This document shows positions 23,425 through 39,501 of a DNA stretch of 64,000 nucleotides, in pieces. Both the position numbers and the translations under genes were made by a program. The stretch is from Terriglobia bacterium. Its GTDB lineage: Bacteria; Acidobacteriota; Terriglobia; Acidiferrales; UBA7541. The DNA lies in NCBI GenBank assembly GCA_963695545.1, contig OY968796.1:1664001-1728000 (forward strand), read 5' to 3'. The notes under the pieces were generated by a model. It searched no databases, was not told the DNA's origin, and saw only the letters and a program-made list of their open reading frames with translations. Each line of letters begins with the position of its first letter. Positions within the stretch are counted from its first letter, which is position 1.

Positions 23425-23436
23425 AGAACTCGTCCG

Positions 23437-24240
23437 TTAGTCGTCAAGCCCGTTAAGCCAATCAAGGTCGCTCGCTCCCGGTTGACGAATGAGTTTGGCC
23501 TCAACCAATGGTTCGTTCCCGAGGCACAGACCGAGGTGGGCACAACTGACGCAGCCGTTCTGCGGGAAACGAATTCCAGGTCGAGGAGGAAATTGGGCAG
23601 TCTCGATTTGACCGACGGTCGCTTCCACTAACTTGCCAAACTCCCTGCGCTGTTCTTCGGTGATCGATGCCAGCAGATACTGAATCTCCGGGACGCGCTT
23701 CCTGACAAAAGCCACAATCGCTACATCGGAGATGCCCGTGACCCAGGAGTAGCAGACCAACTGGAGGTCAAGCGAGGTCAGCCCTTCGGGCTGCTCTGGA
23801 TAACGAGCACTGGTGGTTTTCCATTCGAGCAAACGCCGCTTGCCGTCCAAGGTGCCGATCGCATCGACATAGGCCACGAATTCGTGGCCGTTGGGGAGCG
23901 TGCGAACGAGTTTCTTCTGCAGGTTGCCTTGCGGTTCGGGAACGCGAATCCGATCATCTTGGGCAAACCGCTCGAGCAAACCAATCCCTTGCCGAAGCAT
24001 GTGCTCCCAGCTGTCGCCGCGCGAGAACTCGATCGTAGTTTCGCGATAAGCTCCCCACTCCTTGAACAGCACTGCTCCCGGGTCGTCACCCTCGAAGATC
24101 CCCGCGAGAGCCTTCTCAAAGCAGCGGCCGAAGCACAGCAACGCTCGAGACTCGGTCTCCTTCCAGCCGTCCAGATACCGAAAGCGATAGCTCCGTGGGC
24201 AGCGCAGGTACTGCGAAATCTGCGTATAGCTAAAGGTCAT
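23437..24240 (-). CDS. PD-(D/E)XK nuclease, Cas4/RecB/AddB-like with 4-Cys Fe-S staple
   Basis: SYTQISQYLRCPR; AYVDAIG..LLEWKT; QLVCY; C-terminal CVSCAHLGLC. Confidence 0.88.
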   Translation of the reverse strand: MTFSYTQISQYLRCPRSYRFRYLDGWKETESRALLCFGRCFEKALAGIFEGDDPGAVLFKEWGAYRETTIEFSRGDSWEHMLRQGIGLLERFAQDDRIRVPEPQGNLQKKLVRTLPNGHEFVAYVDAIGTLDGKRRLLEWKTTSARYPEQPEGLTSLDLQLVCYSWVTGISDVAIVAFVRKRVPEIQYLLASITEEQRREFGKLVEATVGQIETAQFPPRPGIRFPQNGCVSCAHLGLCLGNEPLVEAKLIRQPGASDLDWLNGLDD

Positions 24241-24664
24241 GGGACGCCCCCTGCCTGATCCTCCCTGACACGGAGACTTCTTCCCACTCGCATGCTGGCG
24301 CGAACCCGCCGAGATTGAGGTAAGTGCGGCCGTTCAGGGTGGTATAGGAAATCCGCACGATTCCACGCAGGCCAAGGAGCGCCTTTTCATCGACTTCATC
24401 GCTGCCCGTAGGACCCGGGTCATAGCCGAAATCGCGCAGGAACCAGCGGAGTTTCCAGAGAGCTTTTTCGGTGCAGTAGAGACGCCCAGTCAGTGAACGG
24501 CCTTGATGTTCGTGCGGTTCGAGGATTGCGAGTCGCAAAGCATAGAACGGTCGCTCCGGATGCCAACGATAGAGGACGCGATCGACGCGAACCAGAAAAA
24601 CGCCGTCTATGGACTCTTTGTGGCTGGGCGGGTCGCAATACAAACCTGGGATGTGGCGCCTCAT
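24230..24664 (-). CDS. Hypothetical protein, DUF669/phage SSB-like
   Basis: Beta-rich 144 aa (GVFLVRV..YALRLAILEP..GRLYCTEKALWKLRWFL..GIVRISY..YLN); overlaps both neighbours; fold is inference. Confidence 0.55.
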   Translation of the reverse strand: MRRHIPGLYCDPPSHKESIDGVFLVRVDRVLYRWHPERPFYALRLAILEPHEHQGRSLTGRLYCTEKALWKLRWFLRDFGYDPGPTGSDEVDEKALLGLRGIVRISYTTLNGRTYLNLGGFAPACEWEEVSVSGRIRQGASHDL

Positions 24665-25464
24665 GAGCTGACTTCCGTTCGCTTGGAATAGCTGTTGAGT
24701 TGAGCGATCAGCGCCTCGCGATCCTTGGCAGCTGACTCAGCAAGCTTGTTGATAAAATCTTCGACCTGATCTCGGTTGGCATCTCGGAGGACTGTGGTTC
24801 GACAGTAATCGGCGGCATAGGCTTTCACGAGTCCAGCATCGAGCTTGTGCTGACGAATCAACATGCAGAGGCGATCGCGGAGTCGAGGTTGGCTGCTGTG
24901 GTGGCCATTATTTCCGTTCGAGGAAGTGGCCGGCTGAACTGGCCGTTCGGGCGAAATCGACCTGGGGACCCAGCCAAGTTCCTCGACCGAACAGAGCCCG
25001 ATGCCGTACGCCTTGCGCAGGGCGCGGTTAACGGCGCGGGTCTCAGCGACGCGCATTTCAGCGCCGTGCACGATCGAGGAGACATTGGACGGATCGGCGT
25101 CACCGAAACCCACAAATCCCTTCGAGCGCGGAGATGTGTAGACCGTCGCCTTAAAGACCCAGCGGCACGAGGCCGGATCTGACAGCCCCTTGTCTACAGT
25201 GGTTCTCATCCCAGAGCAGTGACTGCGCTGTGCTATGCGGAGCAAGCCGGCGTGCGTCACATACCAATTGCCGTCAAGAAGTCTCAAGTCACCTGCACCG
25301 ACTGACAATTGGAGTTCTTCGGTCACGGATTTAAGCATTGCGACTTGCTCCGGCGAGATTCCCCAGTTTCTCCGCGCAAACCGGATGTTGCGGATAGCCA
25401 AGAGACGTCGTTGCGTTTTTTCCACCAAGGACCGAGGGTCCTTAGCCTTTGTGTTGCGATTCAT
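24661..25464 (-). CDS. Putative single-strand annealing protein (Rad52/Sak/ERF/RecT superfamily-like)
   Basis: YVTHAGLLRIA..FKATVY..FVGFGDA..MRVAETRAVNRALRKAYGIG..SVEEL, then linker and helical C-terminal domain; GGGAG RBS. Confidence 0.6.
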   Translation of the reverse strand: MNRNTKAKDPRSLVEKTQRRLLAIRNIRFARRNWGISPEQVAMLKSVTEELQLSVGAGDLRLLDGNWYVTHAGLLRIAQRSHCSGMRTTVDKGLSDPASCRWVFKATVYTSPRSKGFVGFGDADPSNVSSIVHGAEMRVAETRAVNRALRKAYGIGLCSVEELGWVPRSISPERPVQPATSSNGNNGHHSSQPRLRDRLCMLIRQHKLDAGLVKAYAADYCRTTVLRDANRDQVEDFINKLAESAAKDREALIAQLNSYSKRTEVSS

Positions 25465-25564
25465 TGGTCACTCCCAGTATCCTTCGTTGAGTTCGCCCAA
25501 CCGGCTGCCGCAGCGAGTTCTACGGGTGGCTCGTGGGGAATCGGACTCGAAGTGCGTTCCACTC

Positions 25565-25603
25565 TATAAGGATATTATATCTATATAAGGATTAACAGGT
25601 CAA
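25565..25603 (-). promoter_or_regulatory. Sigma70-like promoter of the recombination operon with overlapping direct repeats
   Basis: Minus strand TTGACC (25603-25598), 18 bp, TATAAT (25579-25574); TATAAGGAT at 25565-25573 and 25584-25592. Confidence 0.7.
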
Positions 25604-25632
25604 GCGCAAAATCTCGAGCATCGAACGTTACC

Positions 25633-25839
25633 GTGGAATGGAAAACGGTTGGGCGACGTATTCGGGAACTCCGCGGCTTCGATTTGACCCAGGAGGAGTT
25701 TGCTCGGCGTATTGGGATCAGCCAGAACTACCTTTCAACGATGGAGCGGGGAAATGTTCAGATCGGATCCGAGATTCTCTTGAGGATCAGCCGCGAGTTC
25801 GGAAAATCGATCGAGTGGCTGCTTACTGGAGTAGACTAG
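25633..25839 (+). CDS. XRE-family helix-turn-helix regulator
   Basis: GRRIRELR..LTQEEFARRIGISQNYLSTMERG..SIEWLLTG; divergent from the operon. Confidence 0.92.
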   Translation: MEWKTVGRRIRELRGFDLTQEEFARRIGISQNYLSTMERGNVQIGSEILLRISREFGKSIEWLLTGVD

Positions 25840-26498
25840 AAATTGATTGGCCAAGAGCGCCGAGAAGGCCCCAGCGGTGGGCGCCATCACGGCCCCGTCT
25901 TAGTAGCACCGGTCTGCACTGCGCGCCCCGTATGAGCCGTCGGCCGGCACTTAATTGCGCGCAAGAACCAGTGAGTAGGGGATTCTCAGAGGAATCGAGG
26001 GAATGGATTTGCCGGACTTCAGGAATATGGCCCTCACGCCCACCCATACCGCGGGACGCCTCAAGCTTTCGACGCTTCGTTTGTCTTTTGCCAAACGAAC
26101 CCAACTGGGAGCTTCCGCCGCGGTGGACGGTCAGGTCCACGTCCAAGGCTGCGGGTGGTGTAACGGCCACATCTGATCGGGCGGCTTGCAATCTGCGGAG
26201 TTCGCCGAGGTTCGGCTGGTTGCATCTGTGAACGTCGATGTTATCGATGCCGGGAGAAGAAAAGAACGACTTCACGGAGAAACCATTTGCTTCAGGACGA
26301 ACACGACTTTACTGGTTTGTGCGGCTGCGGTGCGGACGCCCCGCTCACCCGTCGCCGTCGCGCCCGCTTCCTGCAAACTGTTTCCTTTTTCGCGCCGTCT
26401 GTGATTCAGGGCTCTTGCAGCGGGCCGTACGCTGTGCAAAGCTCGATTCGGCGTTGGGACGCACAGCGTTGGGGAATTCTCCCATTTCGCCGTCCGGT

Positions 26499-26834
26499 GT
26501 GAGCACGTCGTACAGCAGAGCCCGCACGGTACCCCGCTACACATTCGTCGCAGTGGCGGAAGTCACCGACACGACAAACCAAACGTGTCGGGTCGTAAGA
26601 ATCGCCGAACTGAGCCGCAACGGCTGTTTCGTGGACACGCTGAATCCGCTTCCGCTCGGCACTCCTCTAAAAGTCGTCATCTACGGAGGCCAAGGGACCT
26701 TCGCCACCAATGGGAAGGTCATCTACGTCTAAGGGTCAATTGGCATGGGCATCGCGTATCTCGACTCTTCCGCCGAGGAAGCGAAGGTACTCGACGCTTG
26801 GCTCGCTAGCCGCCCTCCGGCCCAAGCCTTGTAG
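26499..26834 (+). pseudogene. PilZ-domain protein interrupted by in-frame TAA
   Basis: RTVPRY..ELSRNGCFVDTLNPLP.GT..GKVIYV, TAA at 26730-26732, then GSIGMGIAY..LDAWL in the same frame; parallels 28480-29028. Confidence 0.8.
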
Positions 26835-26955
26835 GCGAGCCCTGTACCGAAATAGATTTCGGTGCTGAGCGAGCCTCGAGAAAGGAAAATGATTCAGGAA
26901 CGGACGGGGAGAAGTGTTAGCTTCTGGCTCTCGGGTTTTGCGCAACCGTCGGAAA
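26835..26955 (+). repeat. Copy A of ~120-bp element with palindrome ACCGAAATAGATTTCGGT (26846-26863)
   Basis: 42 of the first 50 nt match the reverse complement of 36505-36554. Confidence 0.85.
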
Positions 26956-27066
26956 GGTTCTGTGGTCAAAAACCCGGCTGGATCATTTCATGGTCATGGG
27001 CACGTATATACGTTTTCGGCCAGCCGGGAGGTCAGAACGGAAATTCCGAATCAGCAGGTGGTGAGA

Positions 27067-27969
27067 ATGCCTCGAGAGAGTGTGCCTCGAAGTGGCCGAA
27101 TTCCGAAAGAGGTCGGCGTTCTGCTGACGGGAAGCGACGCGGATGGCAAGGTTTTCGCTGAGGAGACCAGGACCGTCATGCTCAGTCGATACGGGGCGGA
27201 AGTTGTTTCGCGACATACGCTATACCCAGAGCAGGAGATGATTCTTTGTCGGCTGGACATGCATAAAGAGGCAGAGGTCCGTATCGTTGGGAAGATCGGA
27301 TTTCAATCCCGCAGCTACACCTATGGTGTAGCGTTTCTAGACCCAAACATCATCTTCTGGGACGTCGAGTTCCCGCCTTTGACTGAATTGGAGAAGGCGG
27401 CGCGCCGCTGCTTGCTTGAGTGCAGCAGATGTAAAAACCGCGAGATCGTCGAACACGGGGACATCGAACGGCAGGTCTTCGCAATCAACGATGGTATCGT
27501 GCGGCACTGCGAACGCTGCGGATGCTCAACCGCTTGGATTCGTGCTGCTGACGACGCCGATGACAAATGGGTTTCGCCCGAATCCGAGCATGAGCCAGAG
27601 CAGGCCGCGTTTCAGGCTCCACCGGCGGAATCCGAGATCCCGATGCCGGCAGTACAGCCAAGAAACAAACGGAAGCACGTTCGCGCGAATGTAAATTTCA
27701 CCGCGTGCATCCGTCGTCCTGGTTTTGATGACGACGTCGTCATCTGTGAAGACATGTCGCGAGGTGGTTTCTGCTTTAGGAGCAGCAAGCGATACCACGT
27801 CAATTCATTTATTGAAGTAGCTGTACCATACTCGGCAGGTGCCCCAAGCATTTTTGTCCCGGCAGAGATCGTGTACGTACTCGATCTGCCAGAGAAAGGA
27901 CTTTTCAGGTGTGGCGCGGCTTACAACAGAACGCCTTGGGGGGCCTTCGCTGTAGAGCGGGATGTGTGA
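27067..27969 (+). CDS. PilZ - zinc ribbon - PilZ protein
   Basis: Degenerate N-terminal PilZ, CSRC...CERC, C-terminal PilZ with RKHVR and DMSRGG. Confidence 0.82.
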   Translation: MPRESVPRSGRIPKEVGVLLTGSDADGKVFAEETRTVMLSRYGAEVVSRHTLYPEQEMILCRLDMHKEAEVRIVGKIGFQSRSYTYGVAFLDPNIIFWDVEFPPLTELEKAARRCLLECSRCKNREIVEHGDIERQVFAINDGIVRHCERCGCSTAWIRAADDADDKWVSPESEHEPEQAAFQAPPAESEIPMPAVQPRNKRKHVRANVNFTACIRRPGFDDDVVICEDMSRGGFCFRSSKRYHVNSFIEVAVPYSAGAPSIFVPAEIVYVLDLPEKGLFRCGAAYNRTPWGAFAVERDV

Positions 27970-28048
27970 TTCACTCTGTCACTGGGCGCAGCGGCAGAGC
28001 GACCTCAATATCTGTTACACAAAGAATCCCGCGGGGCTCGAGATCCCA

Positions 28049-28211
28049 GGCGGTGGCGTGGGTTACAAATTGGATCCGAGCATCGGCGTTCGCGTGATTC
28101 AGGCGCAATACCTTTATCGCAGTTCTTGAACGCCGTCGGCGCCGCGACCGCAACCGCCATAACCATATCAGGCTCAGCGCTGGAATCACATTTGGCCTCG
28201 GTAGACGCTGA
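28049..28211 (+). pseudogene. 3' fragment of an outer-membrane beta-barrel protein gene
   Basis: GGGVGYKLDPSIGVRVIQAQYLY (frameshift) NHIRLSAGITFGLGRR*; amphipathic beta strands. Confidence 0.45.
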
Positions 28212-28479
28212 CAGCCTTCGTGTACGGGTTCGTTGAAATCGTACGAGAACACTGCCACCCGTTTGGGCTGCTGACAGATTGAACATCGGGGACCCGCTCG
28301 TTGCTCTTCCGCGCCTCCCGTCGTGCAATTATTGAGTCCGTGATACAACCGAAGCGCGCCTCGCTGCGCTCTATTGCGTAGCCCAACTCGGTCGCCACGC
28401 AATTGAAACGGAGTTCGAAGGCTAGCGGCTCGCGGACGCGTTCCTATAAGCGACTCCATCATTCAGGACGAATCAGAAT

Positions 28480-29028
28480 ATGCTGCCTAAACCAACTCCG
28501 AATGCGACGCGCTTGCGATCAGGAGCGGCCTTGCATGACGAGCGGCGCCGATTCGCGCGGTATGCCATCTCGGCGGTCGCGCAAATCGCAGATCCGCGTT
28601 CGGGTGCCCGGTTGACTGCGCGGGTATCCGATCTCGGATGGGGCGGCTGCTACGTTGACACGCTCGCACCGTTACCCGTGGGAACCCAGGTCCACGTCAG
28701 CTTGCGCAAAGAGAAGTCGGCGATCGAATTAACCGGGAAGATCGTCTATGCGAATCCCGGCCTTGGAATGGGAATCGCGTTCGTTGGCGCGGCGGCCGAA
28801 CACAAGGAGGCGCTAAAGAAGTGGTTGAACAGCCTTTCCCAAGGTCAGCCATCCGGCGATTCGATTCGAACGCCCGTCCCAGCCGCGCGACGAACCCCCA
28901 CCGCTACCGCTGGCCCGGACGACGCGCGTTCCTGCGTCGCAAGGCTCGTGCATTTGCTCGTCGCAAAAGGCCTACTGACCGAAGACGATGCCGAGATGAT
29001 TCTTAACAAGCGACCGTCCGTTCTCTAG
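28480..29028 (+). CDS. PilZ-domain protein with C-terminal helical tail
   Basis: ERRRFAR, DLGWGGCYVDT, GMGIAF; tail LVHLLVAKGLLTEDD. Confidence 0.85.
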   Translation: MLPKPTPNATRLRSGAALHDERRRFARYAISAVAQIADPRSGARLTARVSDLGWGGCYVDTLAPLPVGTQVHVSLRKEKSAIELTGKIVYANPGLGMGIAFVGAAAEHKEALKKWLNSLSQGQPSGDSIRTPVPAARRTPTATAGPDDARSCVARLVHLLVAKGLLTEDDAEMILNKRPSVL

Positions 29029-29287
29029 TCCGCACTCGCCATCGCGAGGGTTCGGGAGCGTTCCCTATCCATTCGCAGCCTTCGTTGATGCTGCCGCTCG
29101 GCGGGACGCTGCGCTTCTTGTTGCGACTTCTCACATCTTGGCTTGACGGGAAGATGGCTCGATCGAGCGGGCAGCGGACCCAGCTCTTAGTTGAGGCCGC
29201 CTGCTGATAGGATGTAGTTTCGGCGTTCAAGTATCCCGGCGGGAAAGTCGTCGTCGCGGGGCAACCGGAGCTTTGAGAAGTTGCTGG

Positions 29288-30532
29288 CTATCTCGTGCGC
29301 CATCCATATAGTCGGGCCAGCCGCAGCGGGCGCAGAACTGCGTAGAGACTCCCAAAATGCTTCCCTACGGGGTTCTCTTTGCGGTCCGACTCGGTCGAAA
29401 CAGTGGCGAGGCGAATTGCGTAGCGCAGACCGTCGCCAGTCCGTCCGCGCACGCGAACGCGAAAACTGAAACGCTTCAAAACTCCGAGTTCCGGTCGTCG
29501 TAGTGCAAAGAGTCGGCGACAGACTTGTCCACTGAGCTGTCGCACCACCGGGTCGCGATCGAGATGGGATAAGACTGTCTCCGGTAGAGGCGCGCCGAGC
29601 ACTACCCGGCTAAGGTCGGCGGCAAGAAATACCATCCGCTCGACGCCAAGGCTTCGAGCGCGTCTGATCACCGATTCCCAGTCAAATCCTCCAGGAGTTT
29701 CTACTAGTGCGGCAATGTCCGCAATCCAACCAAGCCGATTCCAGAAGTGTTTGGAGCCGTGCACGGAGAGAAGAATAATCAAATCTTCGGCGCAAAATGT
29801 CTGCGCTTTGCCACCTGCCAACAGAATCGTTTGTCTGCGTCCGAGAAAAGCCTCCACATCCAGCCTTCGTGGGAAGTATCGCAGCGTCGCTTCGCTATGG
29901 ATTTCGACGTACACACTGCGTGCTTCGCTGTAGTATGCGTACTGGCCGGGAACCGGCCCACCGGCGCTCACAGATCTCCGTATTTCTTTCTCATCAAGCT
30001 CCGAGGCATAGCCTCGGCCCGTCAATGCCCGATGCGCCTCGAAGATCTCGCAATGTGGCACCATCAAGTCGAGGTCGGCGAATTGTCGCAGCGCGATATC
30101 GCCATGCGCCTGGGCCGCGAGCACAGGCCCTTTATAGGGCGTGGCTCGCACGCCCCGGGCGGTGAGCGCCGAGAGCACGCGGAACAATTCAGAAGTTAGA
30201 AACAGATTTCTGTGGACGTTGCATCTGAATGCGTCGCGGAAACAGTCACGCCAGAGGTGTGGAATGGCGGAACGAACCACGTCATCGAGGCGCCGACAAA
30301 CGCACGGGGCCACGCCATGCTCGGCCGCCGCCGCAAGCAGCTCGCCCCAATTCACGCCGCGCTCGGCGAGCGTTCGCAATTCCGCGGTCGCGGAGTCGTC
30401 GAGTTGCGGGCGCGCACAAAGCAACAGTAGGGAAGGGATCGCCGTGGTCGCGTACGGATCGCTCGCCGCCGGCTTCTCCCCTAAGGTCCTGGGCGCGCGT
30501 GAAGACACCAACCTGTGCCGATCCGAACTCAC
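29288..30532 (-). CDS. Nucleotidyltransferase family protein (NTP_transf_5-like, RiPP-associated)
   Basis: VNWGELLAAAAEHGV, YKGPVLA..GDIALRQFADLDLMV, VEIH, HGSKHFW..LGWIADI; GTGA overlap with radical SAM gene. Confidence 0.88.
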   Translation of the reverse strand: MSSDRHRLVSSRAPRTLGEKPAASDPYATTAIPSLLLLCARPQLDDSATAELRTLAERGVNWGELLAAAAEHGVAPCVCRRLDDVVRSAIPHLWRDCFRDAFRCNVHRNLFLTSELFRVLSALTARGVRATPYKGPVLAAQAHGDIALRQFADLDLMVPHCEIFEAHRALTGRGYASELDEKEIRRSVSAGGPVPGQYAYYSEARSVYVEIHSEATLRYFPRRLDVEAFLGRRQTILLAGGKAQTFCAEDLIILLSVHGSKHFWNRLGWIADIAALVETPGGFDWESVIRRARSLGVERMVFLAADLSRVVLGAPLPETVLSHLDRDPVVRQLSGQVCRRLFALRRPELGVLKRFSFRVRVRGRTGDGLRYAIRLATVSTESDRKENPVGKHFGSLYAVLRPLRLARLYGWRTR

Positions 30533-31671
30533 GACCCTATCTGGTCCGCAGCGGCCGGATTACAAGACGACACAATGGGCGCCACCGACACGACCTGGAT
30601 TTGTACCAAGCCTGCGGCTGATCGGGTCCTGGATAACAAATTCTTTGATGGAATCCCCGTCCGCACAAAGGATTTCTCGCAATCTTGCGAAGATGGACCG
30701 CGCATGTTCCCTTCCATGTAGGCCAATCCTGGACATCGAGTACAACTCACGCCATGAACGCATTGCGAGCAACTCGGCAGTTCCCGCAGCGTGATACGGC
30801 GAACCTCCTTTAACTGTTCGGAATGGCGCCATATCTCAAGAAAGGAATTGTGCCTCACGTTGCCACTGGGGAGAGGAAATTGGACGCAGGGAAAGACATC
30901 GCCATAAGGCGAAACGTAACACGCGGTGTGGCCGGCGCTGCACGGCAGGCCGCTCAAGTCATCTTCGTCCGGCTCCTTCGGTGGACCACAGAATTCGTCC
31001 ACGCTGCCAACTAGCGATTCATCTTGAAACACCTTTCTCAGAGCTGTCGGATCGACATTCAAGTTCAAGATTGAACGATCGCCATCCATCTTCGGCGTGA
31101 TCGTGGGGTCGATCGTAAATACGACGCCGAGTTCCGCGGCGAGCGCCCTAACTCCCGGGTAATCCTGAACGTTTTGCAGCATCAACACGTCTGCAATCGT
31201 CACTTTCAAACCGTGAGCCTTGAGCAGCCGGATCGCCTCCAACGATCGCTTGAGAGAACCCGGAACCTTCGTAATGGAGTCGTGAACCTCCGGGCGATGC
31301 GAGTAAATGCTGATCTGGACCGACTGCACTGCCAGTGAGCGGATACGTTCCGCCTGGCGCTCGCGGATCAGAACTGCATTGGTTTTGAGCTTCACGCAAA
31401 ACAGCAAAGCGCGGGCATGTTCCAATATTTCAAAAAAATCCTTCCGCAGCAGAATCTCACCGCCACTCATGGTCAGGAAGAGCACGCCGGCCCTTGCCAA
31501 TTCGTCTAGAAGTTTCTTGATCTCTGTCGTGGTCATCTCGCCGTGATCCTCATGGTCGAGGTAACAATGAACGCATTGTTCGTTGCAGCGGTAGGTCAAA
31601 TCCAGCTGCACACTGAGCGGAATCTGCAATTGGAGGGCTTTGGCGCTCATCTCTTGCAGCAGGGTGCTCAT
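30529..31671 (-). CDS. Radical SAM/SPASM peptide maturase
   Basis: CNEQCVHC, SGGE, SPASM CSAG..SPYGDVFPC..CSQC..CTRCPG. Confidence 0.95.
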   Translation of the reverse strand: MSTLLQEMSAKALQLQIPLSVQLDLTYRCNEQCVHCYLDHEDHGEMTTTEIKKLLDELARAGVLFLTMSGGEILLRKDFFEILEHARALLFCVKLKTNAVLIRERQAERIRSLAVQSVQISIYSHRPEVHDSITKVPGSLKRSLEAIRLLKAHGLKVTIADVLMLQNVQDYPGVRALAAELGVVFTIDPTITPKMDGDRSILNLNVDPTALRKVFQDESLVGSVDEFCGPPKEPDEDDLSGLPCSAGHTACYVSPYGDVFPCVQFPLPSGNVRHNSFLEIWRHSEQLKEVRRITLRELPSCSQCVHGVSCTRCPGLAYMEGNMRGPSSQDCEKSFVRTGIPSKNLLSRTRSAAGLVQIQVVSVAPIVSSCNPAAADQIGS

Positions 31672-31985
31672 TTCGACTCCTGCCCCGGTGATGAGGGCCC
31701 GAACGGTTCGTCTGAGAGCAACAAAATCCCGTGCTCGGCAAGTCCATCGGCCAGCGCGTTTGCATCTCGCAAGGCTTCAGCTAGGTCGACTTCGAACTCC
31801 GGGAAGATCTTACATTTCACAATCTCGTCCAGCGCCATAGATCCGTCCGCGGCTTCCCAAATGAGCGTCGCCACTTCGTTCAACGTGAATAACGTCGAAT
31901 CCCGGCCGGACATGATCATCATTTCATCGCCCAGACGGCGCGCCGCGATCTCAGAACTCCGCGCTACATACCGCTTGTTGCTCAC
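31668..31985 (-). CDS. Stand-alone PqqD/RRE peptide chaperone
   Basis: IAARRLGDEMMI..LFTLNEVATLIWEAADG..EFEVD..A..D...L..HGIL; GTGA and ATGA overlaps. Confidence 0.92.
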   Translation of the reverse strand: MSNKRYVARSSEIAARRLGDEMMIMSGRDSTLFTLNEVATLIWEAADGSMALDEIVKCKIFPEFEVDLAEALRDANALADGLAEHGILLLSDEPFGPSSPGQESK

Positions 31986-32797
31986 GCGATGAACTCCCAC
32001 ACGCTGGCATCAGGCACGAAGGTGAGGCGGTAGACCGGCACTCGGACGACGAATTCACACGCGGACTCAAACACTAACCTAACCAATTCGGCATCCTCAG
32101 CAAAAAACAGGATATTGGTGAGAAGCGCGCGCCCTGCCTCCGCTTGGGCGACCGGCTCGACTCGGTTCTGGAGGCCTTTCGCCAGTATGTACAACGCGGC
32201 GATGGGCGCGCAGATGTTCTCACCCACTTTTGCTAGTTCTCCGGTAAAAGGCGTCCCGAAAGCAAAATAGCCCACCTCACGTTTCCGAACATAGGAGATC
32301 TCATCGGAAAGCAGCACTGCATTTTCTGGCGCCAGCCTTGCGAGAGTGGTCTTACCGGCACCGGAAGCACCCGCGAACAAGAACGCCGCTCCATTCCGCA
32401 CGGCGCTGGCCGCGTGCACGAGGAATCCTCCCCGCCGGGAGAGGGCCAGCGTGTGTACGATGCGCAATACCGCGTCGACAGAGTACGGGCTGGCGAAGTG
32501 GCGAATGCTGCCTCTGTTCGAGATGGGGTTCCATTCGGCGCGAAAGTCGCCGCGCACGGCTGACCATCGGCCTGCTCGCTGGAGCACGTGTAGATCGTCA
32601 TCTGACCCGATGGGGCCGGGCGGAGTCAGATCGATATCGAACTCGAACTCCGCATGTTCGGTCCGGCTCACGAACCCCGCATAGCGCTTCTCCAGCGAAC
32701 GCAAGAAGGCAGAGTTGGCGGCGCGCAAGCGCACGGGAAGGCCACCGACCTCGATGACGATTTCTTGAATGTCGAGCGTGGTTTTCAGCTCTCGCAC
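31982..32797 (-). CDS. HPr kinase-like P-loop kinase
   Basis: GFLVHAASAV..AFLFAGASGAGKTTLARL..LLSDEI..GTPFTGE. Confidence 0.85.
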   Translation of the reverse strand: MRELKTTLDIQEIVIEVGGLPVRLRAANSAFLRSLEKRYAGFVSRTEHAEFEFDIDLTPPGPIGSDDDLHVLQRAGRWSAVRGDFRAEWNPISNRGSIRHFASPYSVDAVLRIVHTLALSRRGGFLVHAASAVRNGAAFLFAGASGAGKTTLARLAPENAVLLSDEISYVRKREVGYFAFGTPFTGELAKVGENICAPIAALYILAKGLQNRVEPVAQAEAGRALLTNILFFAEDAELVRLVFESACEFVVRVPVYRLTFVPDASVWEFIA

Positions 32798-33294
32798 AGA
32801 GCCTCTTGTTTTCCTCTTGAACGCTGCCGCATCGCATGCAAGCGGACGAGGGCCGTTGCGACTCGTCCGGAATGAGAAACCAGCGCCGCCGTAAGACGCG
32901 CGCCGAAACTGAGCTGCGTACAAGGTTCGATCCATTTCCCGGCGCGAAGGATGGAAGAGACTTTTCCAAGCAACTCGGCGGCTGTGATGGCGGAATCCTG
33001 CAACGGAAGCGCATCGCCTCGGGTGACCAAACGCGCGATTTGATGATCATTCGTCCTAATCACCACGCGATGGGCGATGAACCTGCCATCGCGAGCGAAA
33101 AGCACGATATCGCCTGGAAGGACGTCGCCGATCTGCTGGCGACGAATCAAGAGGAGATCGCCGGGCCACACGGAAGGAAGCATGCTAAAACCCCTGACTT
33201 TCAACCGCAATCTCCCGGACGATCGCAGAACCTTTTCCGCCAGTTCGCACTTCGCGGCGTCAGCAGCTTCAAGTTTGGGGTGATTGATCGGCAT
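32785..33294 (-). CDS. S24/S26 family (signal peptidase-like) peptidase
   Basis: VRGFSMLPSVWPGD..GDIVLF..IAHRVV..TRGD (Ser/His type); no TM anchor visible. Confidence 0.88.
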   Translation of the reverse strand: MPINHPKLEAADAAKCELAEKVLRSSGRLRLKVRGFSMLPSVWPGDLLLIRRQQIGDVLPGDIVLFARDGRFIAHRVVIRTNDHQIARLVTRGDALPLQDSAITAAELLGKVSSILRAGKWIEPCTQLSFGARLTAALVSHSGRVATALVRLHAMRQRSRGKQEALCES

Positions 33295-33594
33295 CGAGCA
33301 CTTGCTCACTCTCGCGCCTTGGCGCGGTGAAGTTGAATCGCCGCCGCGCCAGCGCCGCGACGTGCCACCATCGCCAGACTTCCTTCCAAGCGTGTGCGCG
33401 ATTTCCGCCTGCCATTCGCGGCCCCCAGATGGGCCTCTTGTCTGCCTGCACAGGTAGAGTGCAAGGGAAGGGAACCGATCCGGGTCAGAGATATCGCTGT
33501 CAGCATTGGTCTGGTGACCAATCGGCATTTAATGATTAGACGCCAACGAGCATCCGTTTCCACATGCGAATGGCTGGCCGCGCATATTCCGCGC

Positions 33595-33789
33595 CTAAGA
33601 AAGTTTGCGATTGAAATGGCATTGTGGCTGGGTACTGCTGATCTTTCCACACGTGAGTGCTGTAGTTTCAAAGACTTCCTCAGTACGAAATTCAGGTTTG
33701 CGGTAGGGTTTCTTCCTCACGCTACGCCCAATTTCTTCGTCTCCGCGGGAATGTCCCGTCTTGTCGCTGCCCGGCTTAGGATGAGTCAT
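33595..33789 (-). CDS. RiPP precursor peptide (64 aa)
   Basis: GAGGAA RBS; leader KKPYRKPEF (YxxP RRE-binding type); ETTALT then putative core CGKISSTQPQCHFNRKLS; upstream of the maturases. Confidence 0.85.
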   Translation of the reverse strand: MTHPKPGSDKTGHSRGDEEIGRSVRKKPYRKPEFRTEEVFETTALTCGKISSTQPQCHFNRKLS

Positions 33790-33858
33790 ATTCCTCGTTT
33801 CATGGCAAACCGGATTGTGTCGACCTTGGAGATGGTGGTTTAGAACGCTTGGTTGCAC

Positions 33859-36237
33859 TTACTGCAATCCGTTTTGTGTCAACTTTTGAAAACATCCCCC
33901 GGAGGTTGCCGAGTTACATTGAAAGGCGGAGCCAGCCCCACCAATTAGACTGGGCCCAGCTGGAGCCAGCCACGAGAAATAAATGCTCGACGCTTGTGGA
34001 AAATTCCCAACCGTTGTCAGAGCGTTGTTGTCGATGATTATTCCGCTCGTTCCGCCCGTGCTCACGTCTGAGAAAGCTGTAATACCCGTGTCGCCATTCC
34101 CTTCTGTACCTGATGGAGGCCATGAAGTTGTGGTGAGATCAAGAGACATTACGCAACCGGTCTGACCATTGCACGGCCAGTTTAAGTTCGCGACGCTGAG
34201 AAATATCCAATCCGTGGAAGTATTTGTATTATAGAACTCGGTTACCGGAGAGCACTGAACATTAGGGGGATCCGAGATCTCGGCACTGTACACGAGAGTC
34301 CGATAGGCTGTCGGGCCTCCGTCCGCAGTTGCATTCATAACACCAGTGCTGCTGAATCCGACGCGCCAAAGAGCAGGCGCATCGGCTAGCGTTGGATCCT
34401 TGCCACAGAAATAGAGAAACCCTGAGGTGCTATTCGCTAAACTATTGTAATAGGTATTGTCAAAATCGCCGGCGAACATCGCCGATCCGGTGCTGGTCCC
34501 GCCGACTCCCGCGAGCGTCACGACGCTACCCAGTGCCGTATTCGTCTGCACCACCTCCCCGTTGTTGACAGTATCTGTCCCATCGAACCAGAAGACGCGT
34601 TCCGATGTGCTGTCAACCAAGGGCCCATCAACAATGGAGCCAGACAGCGCTATCTCTGGTGAACCCAGGCAAGGTGGGATTCCAGAAGCGCACGATCCGG
34701 ACGAACTCCCCGTTTCTCGGGCGTACGAGATCTTTCCAGCCGAATCGCCAACGAAGATATTTCCGCTGCTCCCGTCGAAAACCGGACTCGTGAGAATCGC
34801 GCCAGCGTCCACGGTGATCGGCCAACCGCCCGTAATGACCTCGCCGGGCGTCCCCTGGAATACTCCCGAGAACTTGTGGAGTACGCCGCTTTCGTCCCCA
34901 ACGTATAGCGTATCGGTCGCGTAATCGTAAAACGGAGACGAGTTCGTATCTTCATTTCCGTTGTGAAACGGAACACTAATCATGCAAGATTCACCATTTG
35001 GACAGGTGGTTGTGTTCCAGGCCGTGTTACCCAATGCGCCTGCCGCTGTGTTGACGTAGCTATTCGTGGGTGTCATCGGCGATGTGATGGTGGTGCCTTC
35101 GCCTGCCACGCCCCTCAGAATCCGGAGGACAGCACCAGTCGAGACGGAGGTTTCGACGAACGCGACTTTATCGCCGAGCGCAGATAAGACAACTGATGTT
35201 TGCGCGCTGCCGGTGCCGGTGAAATAGGACCACATCACCGACGGCCCAGCTGTCCCGCAATACCCGGCCGGACTACCGCCAGCCTGTGATGCATAGAGTT
35301 GATTAAGCGCAATAATATTGGGCGTTCCGGATCCCTCCCCGCCCGAAGCGCCCGGAAGATCGTTGTTAAAAGTAACATAGTCGTTGATGCAGTCTGGAGC
35401 GGCATCGACGTTAAATGAGAATTTTGCCGGAAACGTAGTCGCGCTTCCGGTCGTGGCGGTGCCAGCCGCGAGCGAACTCATGGAGAATGCCCAATCCCGA
35501 TGCAGTTCGTCGATTGACGAATTGTTTTTCGGCGGGGCCGAAGCCGTGCCGAGCTCTGACGTCGCCGTACCGACTCCTCCGCAACTAGAAATCATCAAAA
35601 CGAGCAAAATCGCAAGAGCCGTCATCAACGTCGGCAGCCAACGTCGTCGACTCATAAATGCAACGACAAATGACAACCCTAAAATAACTGCCGCAATCTG
35701 GAAGCCGTGAACGGGTGACGCTGGCAGCGGTAGCGTTTCGGGTTGATTCTCTTGGGCCTCCGCCGCGTGGACAGTCGTTGCGAAGCTTACGTCCAGGGCC
35801 GCCGCTAAGCGCATCAGAGCGGTATTAGTCCTTGCGGTTAACGCCGGCGATCTGACCCCGTTTGCGTTACGCGGTTCCGAGTGGGTGGAGAACGGACCAG
35901 GACCGCGAGTAGTGCTGTAGTACGGCTGTAACGAACGTACATTTCGTCTCAGCCGTTGGTGAAGCAGGCGAGGATCCTTTTGGATTTTTGCCCAGACGGC
36001 AGGGTCAGATGTGTTGCTGAACACAAGGTGCTGATGAGACCAATCCCAAGGATATCCAACAGGTTGGCCATCCGAAGAGGCAGACCGTGTTGGCGAGACG
36101 AAATAGAACACCGTCAGAAAAACTAGGCCGCAAAGCGCTCCGCAAACGATCATTCGCACTTGCTTATGCCCAAGCTCAAGTCTCGCTCGAACACGCGAAA
36201 GCAGCACTCCCGGCCTGTGACGGGCGCCCCTTCCCAA
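33859..36237 (-). CDS. Large exported Gly/Ser/Thr/Cys-rich beta-rich protein (start may be ~36153)
   Basis: N-terminal hydrophobic segment, DWSHQHLVFS, internal TM-RRR-TM-SSCGG, repeated SSP..D....LYVGD..G beta-propeller-like units. Confidence 0.8.
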   Translation of the reverse strand: MGRGARHRPGVLLSRVRARLELGHKQVRMIVCGALCGLVFLTVFYFVSPTRSASSDGQPVGYPWDWSHQHLVFSNTSDPAVWAKIQKDPRLLHQRLRRNVRSLQPYYSTTRGPGPFSTHSEPRNANGVRSPALTARTNTALMRLAAALDVSFATTVHAAEAQENQPETLPLPASPVHGFQIAAVILGLSFVVAFMSRRRWLPTLMTALAILLVLMISSCGGVGTATSELGTASAPPKNNSSIDELHRDWAFSMSSLAAGTATTGSATTFPAKFSFNVDAAPDCINDYVTFNNDLPGASGGEGSGTPNIIALNQLYASQAGGSPAGYCGTAGPSVMWSYFTGTGSAQTSVVLSALGDKVAFVETSVSTGAVLRILRGVAGEGTTITSPMTPTNSYVNTAAGALGNTAWNTTTCPNGESCMISVPFHNGNEDTNSSPFYDYATDTLYVGDESGVLHKFSGVFQGTPGEVITGGWPITVDAGAILTSPVFDGSSGNIFVGDSAGKISYARETGSSSGSCASGIPPCLGSPEIALSGSIVDGPLVDSTSERVFWFDGTDTVNNGEVVQTNTALGSVVTLAGVGGTSTGSAMFAGDFDNTYYNSLANSTSGFLYFCGKDPTLADAPALWRVGFSSTGVMNATADGGPTAYRTLVYSAEISDPPNVQCSPVTEFYNTNTSTDWIFLSVANLNWPCNGQTGCVMSLDLTTTSWPPSGTEGNGDTGITAFSDVSTGGTSGIIIDNNALTTVGNFPQASSIYFSWLAPAGPSLIGGAGSAFQCNSATSGGCFQKLTQNGLQ

Positions 36238-36431
36238 CTCAGCATTCCTCCATGTTCATTACATCTGGTAGCTCATCTCCACCGGCCATCACGTCAGAAC
36301 CCGCTCGCATCCAGACACCGACTAGCCATTGCCCACATCGAAGATCAGATTAGATAAAGCGCCTGCCCGATTAAAATTACGCATTCAGACGGGATCTCAT
36401 TTTAACGTTCCCGGCCGACCGAATTGGAGTG

Positions 36432-36554
36432 CATTCCCGACGTCCGCGGCGAAATCTAAAATCCAAGTACCGGCGCTCCTCCCAGCCATTCCCCAAGTAC
36501 TTCTCTTTCTCCAGCCTCGCTCAACACCGAAATCTGTTTCGGTCTGCGGCTCGC
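36432..36554 (-). repeat. Copy B (inverted) of ~120-bp element with palindrome at 36526-36543
   Basis: Reverse complement aligns with 26835-26955. Confidence 0.85.
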
Positions 36555-36785
36555 TCTTTTGCTATGAGTCAAATCGGCATAGGCGAACGGTGTTTCCGAG
36601 GATTTGGACACCACGGAAAATCCGACCCTCGACACTAAGTCGATTCTGATCTTAGACGGCGATGTCGGTCCAACCATCAATCCCACAAACACGAACTCGG
36701 CCTCAAGCACGCCAAAACAGAGTGTGTGGCAGGGATCATCGCATACTTGAAATGATTCTGAAAGAAATTCTGCAGGGTCACGGGC

Positions 36786-36938
36786 ACGATTGAAGAAATC
36801 GCCCAATAGAACATGCTATTGACCGAGGCTATCTTCGAACTACTGGCGCGAAAAGGAATTCTAACGGACGTGGGAGTGAAGGACTGAATCGCCAAACTCA
36901 CGGCCGAGACGCAGATTCAGTTTCGCCGGTTTCGGTAG
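36786..36938 (+). pseudogene. Small helical protein remnant with two in-frame stops
   Basis: TIEEIAQ*NMLLTEAIFELLARKGILTDVGVKD*IAKL; resembles the LLVAKGLLT tail of 28480-29028. Confidence 0.4.
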
Positions 36939-36961
36939 GTCAGCTAGCCCGTGGGACGCGG

Positions 36962-37215
36962 TGATCGGCTCGGCTTTTTTGTACCACCTCGAGGTTGAGT
37001 TTTCGGCTGTCTGTAATCCAATGAGATCGCCGCTAGCCGCGATCTCAGTGGCGAATTCGTCGGGCGTTTTTCCCCGAGGGCCCGGTGGGGGCGACTCTCA
37101 TCGTATTCGACGTGCCAAGTCCCCACGCTCTTGCGCCTGCGTCAATGACATGAACCAATGGGCGTTGAGGCATTCGGTCAAAAACGTTCCGTTGAACGAT
37201 TCCAAGCAGGCATTA
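36962..37215 (-). mobile_element. IS3-family transposase 3' remnant with probable right terminal repeat
   Basis: NACLESFNGTFLTECLNAHWFMSLTQAQE (frameshift) WHVEYDESRPHRALG; ends TGGTACAAAAAAGCCGAGCCGATCA. Confidence 0.82.
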
Positions 37216-38295
37216 CGCTACTAGAGAGGCCGAAGCATTCCAACGCGGCAGCGAGATTTACCACCTGCAACAAAGATGACGAGAAGCCAACCACGGCCGA
37301 GGAACCTGTCGCTGGCGGCCAAGGCATTTTATCTACCCTGACCTAGACTATCTCCGTGCTCCTGTTTCGCCCGACATCACGGGCTCTGTCAATTTCCCTT
37401 GATGTGGTTGCAGCTGTTGTTCCTCATCGGTAGGCGTCTTGGAACGAGCGGTCGAATCTTGGTATCGCGCCAGCCGTGAGTCCGCACCGTCGCTTCGTAA
37501 CGCCTTGCAATTCGCTCGTTCGGATAAGTGTCTATCCGCATCAGCGGTCCGCCCTCGAATCTCCTGCCTACGATCTCGTATTTCATTGTCCAGCCATCGC
37601 CCAGGTTGTTCTGCCTTTCTCGTACGTGCCCACAAGGTAAGATAGCGTACGTGGCGCGAAATGTTTCAAACGGAGGCCGCAATCGGATAACGCCTCAGCT
37701 CGACGCCAGAATCAAATAGCAACGCCACCGCCGCGGGCCGAACTCGGCCCAGCCCTCGCGTCTCTGTTCATTCACGATCTTTCAGTCATATCATGAGCTG
37801 TCGGCTATTTGGCACAGGGGCGGCGCGCCGAGGAAAATTCGTGCGCGCCAACCGATACCGGCCGGACGCAGCCTCGAAAAGACGATTTTTGCAAAACGAA
37901 CTGGCCTAACCAACACAAAATAAGTGATTTGACTGTTTTCGCGCATTGCAAAACCCGTGCATTTTAGACCTTTCGCGAAGCCTTCGGACGTTATCGGCGT
38001 GCCCCTGTGTACAAACAGCTCGCGACCGCGGTGCCAACAGATCAAGTCGTCGCATGCTTCCCTCCTTTCCGGCCGACTGCCTGCGTCGGCACATTTTGCT
38101 GCGCGTCCCTGTTTCGCTATACTTCCATGCGCGATACGGTTCCCCTCGGGTCTGGGCTATGAACCGATGCCCGCTATCATTCGACTTTTTCGTTTGTGCG
38201 GCACCCAACGTTGGTGCCTAGTCCGATAGTTCAACAGCCCTACGTTTGCGCCGCGGGGTCATGACCACTCAGGAAAGCGGCGCGGGAAGGTTCCG

Positions 38296-39501
38296 CTGTT
38301 AAGCAAGAATCAAGCGCGGCGAAATCCGTCCTCCGCGGGTGAGCGCGTCGCCATTGTGGGTGGTTCGACGGCAGGGTTCTTCACTGCCTCGCTGCTCGCG
38401 CGCCGTGGAGTGCGCGTTCAGTTGTTCGAGCAAGCCGAGCAGCTCGATCCCGCGCCGCGCACGCTGATCGTCACTCATCGTATGCGCGAATTGCTCGGCG
38501 CGCACGCCGAGCCTTCCGTGGTCAACGAGATCCGCCGCTTTGAAATGTTCACGGATGGTCGCGCGGCCACCGTCGCCCTCGACCGCCCGGACCTCATTGT
38601 CGAACGCGCGCGTTTGATTCGCGGCCTCGCTGCCCAGGCCGAACGCGACGGCGCCCAGATTTCGATGGGGCGCCGATTCCTCGGCGTGCGAGGCAAGCCG
38701 CGCGGCAATGGTGCGGGCCTTCAGTTGACGCTCGGCGTTTCCGGATCCGGGGCGACCGAGCAAATCGACGCCGACACAGTCGTTGGCGCGGACGGCGCTC
38801 AGAGCCGCGTGGCCCAAGCCGCCGGTTGGCCGCGCATGCGCACCGTGCCGTTGATTCAAGCCATCGTCAAGATGCCAGCCGACATGCCGTCCGATTCCGT
38901 CCGTGTCTGGTTCGTTCCCGGAGACACGCCGTATTTCTACTGGCTCATTCCGGAATCGAACCAAACGGCCGCGCTCGGCCTGATCGGCGAAGACGGCCAT
39001 CACGCGCGCGAGTGCCTCGATCGATTCATGGACAAGCGACACTTCGAGCCGCTCTCGTTTCAAGGTGCGCGCATTCCCGTCTACGACGGCTGGGTCCCTG
39101 TCGAGCGGCGCCTCGGAGCCGGCCGCGTTTTTCTGGTCGGTGACGCCGCCTGTCAGGTCAAGGTCAGCACCGTTGGCGGCATCGTCACCGGTTTCCGCGG
39201 CGCGCTCGGGGTCTCCGAAGCCATCCTTGATGGCGGCCGCAGCCGCGAATTGCGCGCCCTTCGCCGCGAACTCGATCTGCACTTGCTGATTCGCCGCACC
39301 ATCCATACCTTCCAGCAGGCCGACTACAGCCGCTTGGTGGATTTGATGAACGCTTCGACCAAACGCTCTCTCAGCCGATACTCGCGCGATGAAGCCGGAC
39401 GCGTCCTCTGGCATTTGGCGATCAGCCAGCCACGCCTTCTTCTTCTCGGGCTGCGCGGGTTGTTGTCCGGCGGGAGCGCCTTCCGCTCGAACCTGCGGTG
39501 A
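38296..39501 (+). CDS. FAD-dependent oxidoreductase (geranylgeranyl reductase-like); start uncertain
   Basis: RVAIVGGSTAG, VVGADGAQSRVA, FLVGDAA..VKVSTVGGI. Confidence 0.85.
   Translation: MLSKNQARRNPSSAGERVAIVGGSTAGFFTASLLARRGVRVQLFEQAEQLDPAPRTLIVTHRMRELLGAHAEPSVVNEIRRFEMFTDGRAATVALDRPDLIVERARLIRGLAAQAERDGAQISMGRRFLGVRGKPRGNGAGLQLTLGVSGSGATEQIDADTVVGADGAQSRVAQAAGWPRMRTVPLIQAIVKMPADMPSDSVRVWFVPGDTPYFYWLIPESNQTAALGLIGEDGHHARECLDRFMDKRHFEPLSFQGARIPVYDGWVPVERRLGAGRVFLVGDAACQVKVSTVGGIVTGFRGALGVSEAILDGGRSRELRALRRELDLHLLIRRTIHTFQQADYSRLVDLMNASTKRSLSRYSRDEAGRVLWHLAISQPRLLLLGLRGLLSGGSAFRSNLR

Follow-up and report, generated by a model that had tools for sequence, protein, structure and literature searches.

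What would be made by an operon in which a gene for a 64-residue peptide stands ahead of five genes of the kind that mature peptides? The question is raised by the minus strand at 29288-33789 of a 64,000-nucleotide stretch of DNA (hereafter the window) spanning positions 1,664,001 to 1,728,000 of contig OY968796.1 (assembly GCA_963695545.1), from a Terriglobia bacterium of the phylum Acidobacteriota. The peptide gene is accompanied there by five tightly coupled genes, with stop/start overlaps of 4 to ~19 nt between operon genes as judged from the coordinates of the open reading frames (ORFs). An original prediction, made from the letters of the window, had read these genes as an operon for a peptide that is made on ribosomes and modified after translation (RiPP), and we found all six on the minus strand where it had placed them. 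We put at roughly 60% the probability that the operon makes a RiPP by the recruitment, phosphorylation and cleavage logic of the linear polyphosphorylated peptides (LPPs) of Bacillota (an example is the lpp cluster of Paenibacillus alginolyticus DSM5050; Popov et al., Nat Commun 2026, PMC13381572, cited here, like PMC6993621 and PMC10368454, from the accessible parts of the text), with a radical SAM/SPASM step added. The RiPP reading as such is well supported by comparative evidence, and every chemical step within it is one that we infer. The features are as follows, where RRE stands for RiPP recognition element and SpI for type I signal peptidase.

33595..33789, minus strand: precursor peptide gene, 64 aa and stop; ATG with GAGGAA ahead
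33664..33789, minus strand: predicted leader, residues 1-42; variable charged N-terminus, then KKPYRKPEF (Y29-x-x-P32-x-F34), ending in F40-E41-T42
33598..33663, minus strand: predicted 22-aa core TALTCGKISSTQPQCHFNRKLS; xALxCGK (conserved), then 9 variable residues, a second Cys 8 residues from the end and terminal Ser64
32785..33294, minus strand: SpI-like leader peptidase, 170 aa from ATG 33294 (Peptidase_S24, sigpep_I_arch); ORF open upstream to 33528
31982..32794, minus strand: HPrK/PEPCK-fold P-loop kinase-like protein, 271 aa from GTG 32794, by fold and invariant motifs; ORF open upstream to ATG 32935
31668..32000, minus strand: discrete PqqD-type RRE, 110 aa (PqqD, E 5e-11)
30529..31671, minus strand: radical SAM/SPASM enzyme, 380 aa, without a fused RRE (Radical_SAM 7.4e-24, SPASM 1.6e-11)
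29288..30532, minus strand: NTP_transf_5 protein, 414 aa (PF14907, E 9.7e-50)
33859..36237, minus strand: 792-aa protein with a beta-propeller in its AlphaFold2 (AF2) model, probably membrane-anchored; conserved partner of the cassette

Conservation of the peptide and its cassette

The peptide is conserved far beyond chance, because all 12 candidate homologues from a search of 5.8 billion proteins were confirmed (E 5e-27 to 6e-09) and the same enzymes stand alongside it in dozens of other genomes. Across the alignment of the 12 homologues (A1) the invariant residues are K26, K27, Y29, K31, P32, F34, F40, E41, A44, L45, C47, G48, K49, Q54, C57, K62 and S64.

With the kinase as bait (an alignment of eight close rows) and one genome per species, 597 stretches matched the search pattern and 551 of them encode a relative, which makes at least 551 kinase-encoding loci in species-representative genomes. 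Gene counts given out of 80 refer to the best 80 of these 551 loci (59-67% identical), scanned with our own hidden Markov models (HMMs), and are minima, some loci ending at contig edges. By record title, 77 of the 80 are metagenome-assembled genomes (MAGs) of Acidobacteriota (Candidatus Sulfotelmatobacter, Acidobacteriaceae, Terriglobia, Candidatus Acidoferrum); the remainder are one binned Binatus and two Verrucomicrobiia. The RRE and the radical SAM enzyme were found at 80/80 loci, the peptidase at 79/80, the peptide at 73/80, the family of the 792-aa propeller protein at 57/80 and NTP_transf_5 at 37/80, and the commonest gene order is exactly that of the window (23/80). Other neighbour families (SET domain, RND pump on the opposite strand, MFS, LacI, M48 peptidase, PALP) occur in at most 32/80 loci, and none of them is seen in the part of the window that was scanned; we read them as local synteny. 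The SET-domain gene reaches that maximum (32/80). An M48 (Ste24-like) membrane peptidase lies on the operon strand in 18/80 loci, its start at a median of ~1.5 kb past the kinase gene (e.g. L073:9405-10838 (+)), close to where NTP_transf_5 sits in other loci.

The same association appears when genomes are sampled by phylum. The peptide profile matched 29 of 401 genomes of the same phylum, with strong matches in 7 of the 33 genomes of one family (f3) and in one genome of another (G383); the kinase family is present in 136 of the 401, namely in 28 of the 29 genomes with a peptide match vs. 108 of the 372 without, and the lone peptide-positive, kinase-negative genome owes its status to a match judged spurious (L026). 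In family f3 the identical 7 of 33 genomes carry both genes. Among the close-type loci that were fetched, peptide, peptidase, kinase, RRE and radical SAM genes are collinear in eight, or in 9 of 11 sites when the window is included; the two exceptions hold, respectively, the peptide with a fragmented propeller gene only (L035) and a read-through peptide beside a sigma factor (L041). For five genomes the stretch fetched around the peptide held no complete cassette, and each of them has a kinase homologue, on a separate contig in three (G189, G081, G204), ~9 kb away on the same contig in one (G224) and right beside the peptide in one (G293). At 20 further, divergent kinase loci a radical SAM gene is adjacent in 14, and all eight leader-like small ORFs found alongside end in Ser. 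The peptide and the enzymes thus belong together, as the original prediction had supposed in calling this a RiPP-type operon, and the cassette is among the commoner peptide-modification systems in Acidobacteria, given the at least 551 loci and the kinase family in about a third of the genomes sampled.

The pattern of conservation within the peptide is the one typical of RiPPs, namely a conserved leader and xALxCGK motif, a free stretch between the cysteines and a C-terminal Ser. The best 80 loci hold 76 peptides, 72 of them unique, with consensus KkpYeKP.FRyEqvFvT.ALsCGK...tq..C....k.S. Every one of the 72 ends in Ser; exactly two Cys are present in 68/72, the first and last Cys are 8-10 residues apart in 68 of the 71 peptides having at least two, and in 71/72 the distance from the last Cys to the C-terminus is 7-10 residues. 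Over the 73 homologous precursors that were aligned, the terminal Ser is again universal (73/73), and the leader (KKPYxKPxF...F[V/E]T) and xALxCGK are near-invariant, bearing out the logo that had been forecast for this family (YxKP, [E/V]TxALxCGK, a second Cys and a terminal Ser). NCBIfam holds no model matching the window peptide or four distant relatives.

Distant relatives with the same leader fall into two subfamilies, both beside kinase-RRE-radical SAM sets. One is long and Gly-rich (~90-110 aa, ending ...C.NW....S; loci L042-L045, L049 and L050, genomes G042, G026 and G007), reaches up to 11 leader matches per genome and is accompanied by B12-binding radical SAM genes in addition to kinase, RRE, radical SAM/SPASM and peptidase genes. 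The other is short (38-45 aa), of the form MKKxYEKPxI..EARAVxCAK..C..TS. In this wider leader family 37 of 42 unique matches to the leader HMM end in Ser; of the five others two end in SSG or SN, one reads through, one lies at a contig end and one is a doubtful hit. The read-through peptide at L041 (G147:C30) is an orphan that lacks the second Cys and the stop and reads on for ~85 residues; genes for an ECF-type sigma factor and a TonB-dependent receptor lie beside it, and the copy has probably decayed.

Predicted enzymes and the order of steps

The proposed pathway would begin with the PqqD-type RRE, which may bind the leader motif Y29-x-x-P32-x-F34, conserved here as in leaders of the lasso/YxxP kind to which it had been likened, and present the precursor to the enzymes. 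Beyond PqqD itself the RRE weakly matches the GeoRSP PqqD model (best) and the lasso PqqD chaperone model. When RRE and peptide were co-folded from our own alignments, the score was 0.50 against 0.00 for the best control, at least 90% of contacts were shared by the three runs, and the partner had a predicted local distance difference test (pLDDT) value of at least 52. The mark applied to such scores was reached by 116 of 157 solved complexes and by 2 of 215 mismatched pairs; complexes that reached it with 0.60 or less numbered only 18 of the 157, and both passing mismatches were in that range. The model thus lends weak support to leader binding, and since RRE-leader complexes have already been solved the pass may reflect likeness to known complexes.

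The radical SAM/SPASM enzyme would then modify the core by cross-linking through Cys, most likely of thioether type, via Cys47 (in xALxCGK) and/or Cys57. Its alignment (A8) keeps C29, C33 and C36, G70-G71-E72 and six SPASM cysteines (C244, C262, C301, C304, C310, C313) invariant. The closest solved chain is the thioether-forming SkfB (1.2e-17 over residues 12-283), with PqqE behind it at 2.1e-08. In NCBIfam the longest alignments are those with the MftC, NirJ2, AlbA and SkfB models, and every curated model, StsB included, scores far below its cut-off (e.g. MftC 138 vs. 265, SkfB 81 vs. 300); the alignments with AlbA and SkfB extend over most of the length.

In the third step the HPrK-fold protein would phosphorylate Ser, possibly repeatedly, with Ser64 as the best candidate. 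Its ORF runs from 31982 to 32935 and relatives align from about GTG 32794. Sequence comparison with solved structures gave a marginal PEPCK match only (0.033), and the AF2 model (pLDDT 88.2) is more telling: as a whole it resembles ATP-PEPCK (VIA Z 15.1, Foldseek E 1e-09), and residues 121-270 superpose on four HprK/P structures at VIA Z 9.1-9.7 (root-mean-square deviation 2.9-3.3 A, 114-119 residues aligned), vs. Z 4.3 for the next unrelated match. Invariant in the alignment of relatives (A2) are H127, the P-loop G142-x-S144-x-x-G147-K148-x-T150 and the pair D164-E165, which we take to correspond to the motifs of HprK/P. By model and motif the protein has the HprK/PEPCK P-loop fold, with Walker A and an acidic pair, and is a predicted kinase.

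The NTP_transf_5 protein, where present, would add a further group to the phosphate, as an accessory tailoring enzyme. Its gene is single-copy in the genome, and searching its sequence against solved structures returned nothing meaningful. Pairing of a kinase with an NTP transferase has precedent on Ser of lasso peptides (PMC6993621), as had been pointed out, and on Ser of LPPs (PMC13381572). The nucleotidylation that had been proposed for the added group finds no such precedent in the accessible text of these papers, where addition of a +162 Da hexose to the phosphoserine of pseudomycoidin requires PsmN (PMC6993621) and LppN is without detectable activity (PMC13381572).

Leader removal would fall to the peptidase, helped by the RRE. 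The ORF spans 32785-33528 and probably starts at ATG 33294, where the conserved part begins; it is open through part of the 300-nt gap that follows the peptide gene, and that part is not conserved. The protein matches Pfam Peptidase_S24 (E 9e-07) and, below cut-off, NCBIfam sigpep_I_arch (E 2.2e-11). Because S37, H75 and D94 are kept within the invariant G35-x-S37-M38, H75-R76 and G93-D94 and no N-terminal hydrophobic segment is conserved (alignment A3), it looks like a soluble Ser/His/Asp enzyme of the archaeal/endoplasmic-reticulum SpI-like type (S26B, SipW-like). The LPP peptidase LppS cuts after F-3 E-2 T-1, only with LppB and dependent on S29, H68 and D93, and mutations in core residues 1-5 did not impair its cleavage (PMC13381572). 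At the matching positions the peptides here have F in 73/73, V or E in 73/73 and T in 69/73. By this homology, cleavage is likely after F40-E41-T42, FET(42)|TALTCGK, which would free the 22-residue core TALTCGKISSTQPQCHFNRKLS.

Several observations weigh against the pathway as drawn. All curated HprK-related NCBIfam models score the kinase-like protein below cut-off (ScmC 6.6e-13, HprK_rel_A 1.2e-06); the best NCBIfam scores of the radical SAM enzyme are to AhbD, MftC and NirJ2, none of them thioether formers; and LppN was reported to be without activity. A distant relative beside a radical SAM gene (L048) has a single Cys, only some of the distant loci with short peptides gave a peptidase match, and no exporter is co-conserved on the operon strand in the 80 loci. 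In the window ~300 nt (33295-33594) lie between the peptide stop and the conserved peptidase start; relatives differ, the peptidase ORF of L033, for example, beginning at most ~13 nt after the peptide stop. Finally, the LPP and Bsf kinases use Ser3 of the core and not the C-terminus. Position 3 of the window core is Leu and its first seven residues include no Ser, although a Ser does occur within positions 1-7 in 59 of 73 relatives.

This last point belongs to an alternative that moves the phosphate to a site close to the N-terminus of the core, or to an internal Ser, and leaves the C-terminal Ser to serve otherwise, such as in recognition by the radical SAM enzyme or the propeller. LppK puts several phosphates on core Ser3 only, S3A abolishing the reaction (PMC13381572), BsfK likewise acts on core Ser3 (PMC10368454), and among the 73 relatives Ser or Thr is frequent at core +1 (33 Ser, 33 Thr) and core +4 (49 Ser, 17 Thr). 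We think it unlikely, as LppK does not accept Thr (PMC13381572), 14 of the 73 relatives share with the window the lack of Ser in positions 1-7, and the kinases of the paeninodin type, PsmK and PadeK, phosphorylate a C-terminal Ser (PMC6993621). We favour Ser64 as the predicted phosphosite because core position 3 is Leu, positions 1-7 hold no Ser, and the sole Ser conserved in all 73 relatives is the C-terminal one. About as unlikely, in our estimate, is a radical SAM enzyme that leaves the cysteines alone, with an ordinary disulfide or another role for Cys47 and with a different change to the peptide (C-C cross-link, epimerisation or MftC-like chemistry at the C-terminus). MftC acts on C-terminal residues of its precursor, and the best-scoring models named above, the conserved distance from Cys57 to the C-terminus and the single-Cys relative would all fit such chemistry. 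The balance is tipped toward cross-linking through Cys by the A[L/V]xC motif with a second Cys in 68/72 close relatives and by the likeness to SkfB, a Cys-to-C-alpha thioether former, together with the coverage of the AlbA and SkfB models; moreover the logo of the LPPs, which lack a radical SAM enzyme, shows no conserved Cys in the form given in the accessible text (YxxPxVLxHQxIxFETxxS; PMC13381572).

Two further alternatives are less probable still. The original prediction had the peptide cut by a signal peptidase at A-L-T|C, both cysteines linked by the radical SAM enzyme, and the terminal Ser first phosphorylated, then nucleotidylated. In its favour, conservation of A44 reaches at least 90% and the residue directly before Cys47 is S, T or A in 71/73 peptides, as the -3/-1 rule would have it, and the NTP_transf_5 protein belongs to a nucleotidyltransferase-fold family; yet the homologous LPP peptidase cuts after FET, a motif conserved here, and tolerates mutation of core residues 1-5 (PMC13381572), the distant short peptides have Q, R, I or L right before the Cys, and the only PsmN-dependent addition measured in the accessible text is a +162 Da hexose and not a nucleoside monophosphate (PMC6993621). 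This version as a whole is accordingly quite doubtful to us. We rate as very improbable that the peptide gives rise to a small cofactor, such as pyrroloquinoline quinone (PQQ) or mycofactocin, and not to a secreted or signalling peptide. A discrete PqqD protein, a radical SAM/SPASM enzyme and a peptidase without an exporter would suit a cofactor, as would the invariant C-terminal residue and MftC among the best matches. The core between the cysteines varies widely, however, whereas in cofactor precursors the reactive residues stay constant together with what surrounds them; up to 11 leader matches occur in some genomes, and distribution is patchy (7/33 genomes in one family); no partner oxidoreductases are co-conserved in the 80 loci; and the precursor gene is paired with a propeller that is probably extracytoplasmic.

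The upstream propeller gene and flanking sequence

That propeller gene, at 33859-36237, extends the cluster beyond the boundary first drawn, which had overlooked it. Read by eye at its N-terminal part, the protein has an N-terminal hydrophobic segment and an inserted hydrophobic pair ending in a lipobox-like MISSC, followed by a C-terminal Cys-rich beta-propeller of ~558 aa, and we read it as membrane-anchored and probably extracytoplasmic. Relative to shorter homologues, the insertion (residues ~120-235) that holds the hydrophobic pair and MISSC lies between a conserved N-terminal DWSxxH motif and the propeller; it weakly matches NF058595 'invert_tail' (30.3 bits vs. a cut-off of 37). The protein matches no Pfam family. 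The AF2 model of its C-terminal 558 residues (pLDDT 76.5, predicted template modelling score 0.83) finds generic matches only (BamB, lactonase-like and designed propellers), and the ESM Atlas gives Acidobacteriota clusters at 0.83 and PQQ_2/BamB-like leads at 0.76, all under the 0.9 guide.

Wherever it occurs among the best 80 loci, the propeller gene is on the operon strand, and the commonest gene orders place it directly upstream of the peptide. At E up to 1e-3 its family counts at least 739 members, but a genome carries only 1-2 copies; one copy adjoins the cassette, upstream or downstream, in 6/6 genomes checked, and three paralogues elsewhere have no cassette nearby. Propeller-peptide modules are tandemly repeated before the maturase genes at three loci (L104, L121, L128), and at L035 the propeller-peptide pair stands apart from the maturase genes. 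Conserved adjacency, tandem modules and the separate pair point to the propeller as a dedicated functional partner of the peptide, perhaps as its receptor, in immunity or as an aid to export. Many propeller genes in MAGs are split over several frames (also at L096, L119, L125, L136 and L139), for which frameshifts, decay or long-read assembly error are possible explanations.

A farther-reaching reading, which we hold only tentatively, is of a distinct Acidobacteriota-wide RiPP class whose product would be both cross-linked by the radical SAM enzyme and phosphorylated on its C-terminal Ser, each precursor being paired with a propeller that recognises the mature peptide (signal-receptor or toxin-immunity). 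Such pairing would account for propeller-peptide modules being repeated in tandem and standing apart from the maturases. In a bolder sub-variant the Ser64 phosphate would be a leaving group, and Cys57, 7-10 residues upstream, might add to the resulting dehydroalanine to give a C-terminal lanthionine-like ring. If the propeller is the cognate partner, it would offer a rare handle on what such peptides do.

Turning to the surroundings, the region between the peptide and peptidase genes gave no sign of a regulatory RNA (33285-33605; fold z-score -1.26, 13 of 100 shuffles folding as well), Rfam at E up to 0.1 returned no match over 28000-38000, and the promoter and terminator scan did no better than on shuffled sequence. 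Just downstream of the last gene of the operon, on the opposite strand, are three consecutive genes for PilZ-domain proteins (26238-26732, 26914-27969 and 28480-29028, plus strand; Pfam E 6e-05, 1e-10 and 2.4e-10). A 60-aa ORF (36944-37126, minus strand) ~700 nt upstream of the propeller gene weakly matches the rve_3 integrase core, below cut-off (E 0.0026), and may be an insertion sequence remnant. At 3-6 kb from the cluster lie genes for a UDP-glucose/GDP-mannose dehydrogenase (39389-41080, plus strand) and an NAD-dependent epimerase/dehydratase (41105-41995, minus strand). LPP clusters of Bacilli have been reported inside capsular polysaccharide loci, and LppN is suspected to need a partner encoded outside its cluster.

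Comparison with known systems

The Acidobacteria are abundant in soils and peat and mostly uncultured, and little is known of their peptide chemistry. In the literature searched, from whose coverage most subscription journals were absent, no paper described a cluster that combines a kinase, a radical SAM/SPASM enzyme and an SpI. The remark that no product of such a gene set was characterised thus stands for the radical SAM variant, and is overtaken for a closely related module, characterised in 2026 (PMC13381572).

That module, the LPP system, has as core genes the archaeal-type SpI LppS, the discrete RRE LppB, the HprK-like kinase LppK, the NTP transferase LppN and an MsbA-like exporter, and NTP_transf_5 and PqqD are tallied in the domain tables of LPP neighbourhoods (PMC13381572, with supplement file 3). 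Four of the five have counterparts in the window: a SipW-like SpI with Ser/His/Asp, a discrete PqqD-type RRE, an HprK-like kinase and NTP_transf_5. S37, H75 and D94 here match S29, H68 and D93 of LppS, as paired from the residues named in the paper and not by direct sequence comparison. The leaders also resemble one another, with Y-x-x-P-x-hydrophobic and an end in F-[E/V]-T here against the LPP motif YxxPxVLxHQxIxFETxxS, and neither system has a lasso cyclase. The window system differs in adding a radical SAM/SPASM enzyme (present at all 80 loci), xALxCGK, a second Cys, an invariant C-terminal Ser and the upstream propeller gene; in having Leu and not Ser at core position 3 and its FET two residues closer to YxxP; and in its host phylum, Acidobacteriota and not Bacillota. 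It is without an MsbA-like exporter among the ORFs scanned at 22290-41995, and its product is not expected to be linear, given the radical SAM/SPASM enzyme and the conserved Cys. Because the exporter and linear-product features fail, we do not count it as a member of the LPPs. The main text of the LPP paper lists no radical SAM or Acidobacteria occurrences (0) and calls LPPs restricted to Bacillota, and its supplementary table includes 10 Acidobacteriota SpI entries in small network clusters, unanalysed there, one of which resembles the window peptidase by eye (PMC13381572). The module of SpI peptidase, RRE and HprK kinase, reported in 2026 as Bacillota-restricted, thus exists in another phylum, joined there to radical SAM chemistry, and the 22-residue core gives testable predictions in its cleavage site, its two Cys and its terminal Ser.

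Phosphorylated lasso peptides (paeninodin, pseudomycoidin, Bsf) share with the window a YxxP leader, a discrete RRE and an HprK-like kinase (PMC6993621; PMC10368454). For paeninodin and pseudomycoidin the residue phosphorylated is the C-terminal Ser, and a further +162 Da on the phosphate requires PsmN, an enzyme of NTP-transferase fold (PMC6993621). The likeness ends there. The window operon has neither a macrolactam synthetase nor a B2 cysteine protease, its leader peptidase is a serine enzyme, and a radical SAM enzyme is present. As had been noted of the operon, a scan of the ORFs in the same interval yielded no lasso cyclase, B2 protease or transporter, and Transglut_core3 has 0 matches genome-wide (one contig, 93.8% complete). 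Neither candidate core has an Asp or Glu at positions 7-9, and we do not class the system with the lasso peptides.

The systems of PqqE/PqqD, MftC/MftB, SkfB and AlbA share the CxxxCxxC radical SAM motif and SPASM auxiliary Cys, the window likewise having a separate PqqD-type RRE and a Cys-containing peptide alongside; none of them has a kinase, an SpI-like peptidase or NTP_transf_5. To the maturases of sactipeptides and ranthipeptides the window enzyme shows a likeness, through SkfB and the below-cut-off AlbA, SkfB and StsB models. A further comparison is with SynChlorMet (SCM) and GeoRSP, which to our knowledge are in-silico NCBIfam/TIGRFAM systems without a known product, and we know of no precursor or peptidase defined for SCM. 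ScmC is the best curated match of the kinase, GeoRSP PqqD that of the RRE, and the radical SAM enzyme matches both ScmE and the GeoRSP radical SAM model, all of which suggests that a kinase-like protein, a PqqD protein and a radical SAM/SPASM enzyme form a recurring combination. The scores fall well below the cut-offs (ScmC 48.6 vs. 125, GeoRSP PqqD 27 vs. 100, ScmE 113.9 vs. 400, ScmF 57.3 vs. 400), which places the window outside both systems. Among known systems it is best described as an LPP-like module with a radical SAM/SPASM enzyme and a probably membrane-anchored propeller, common in uncultured soil and peat Acidobacteriota.

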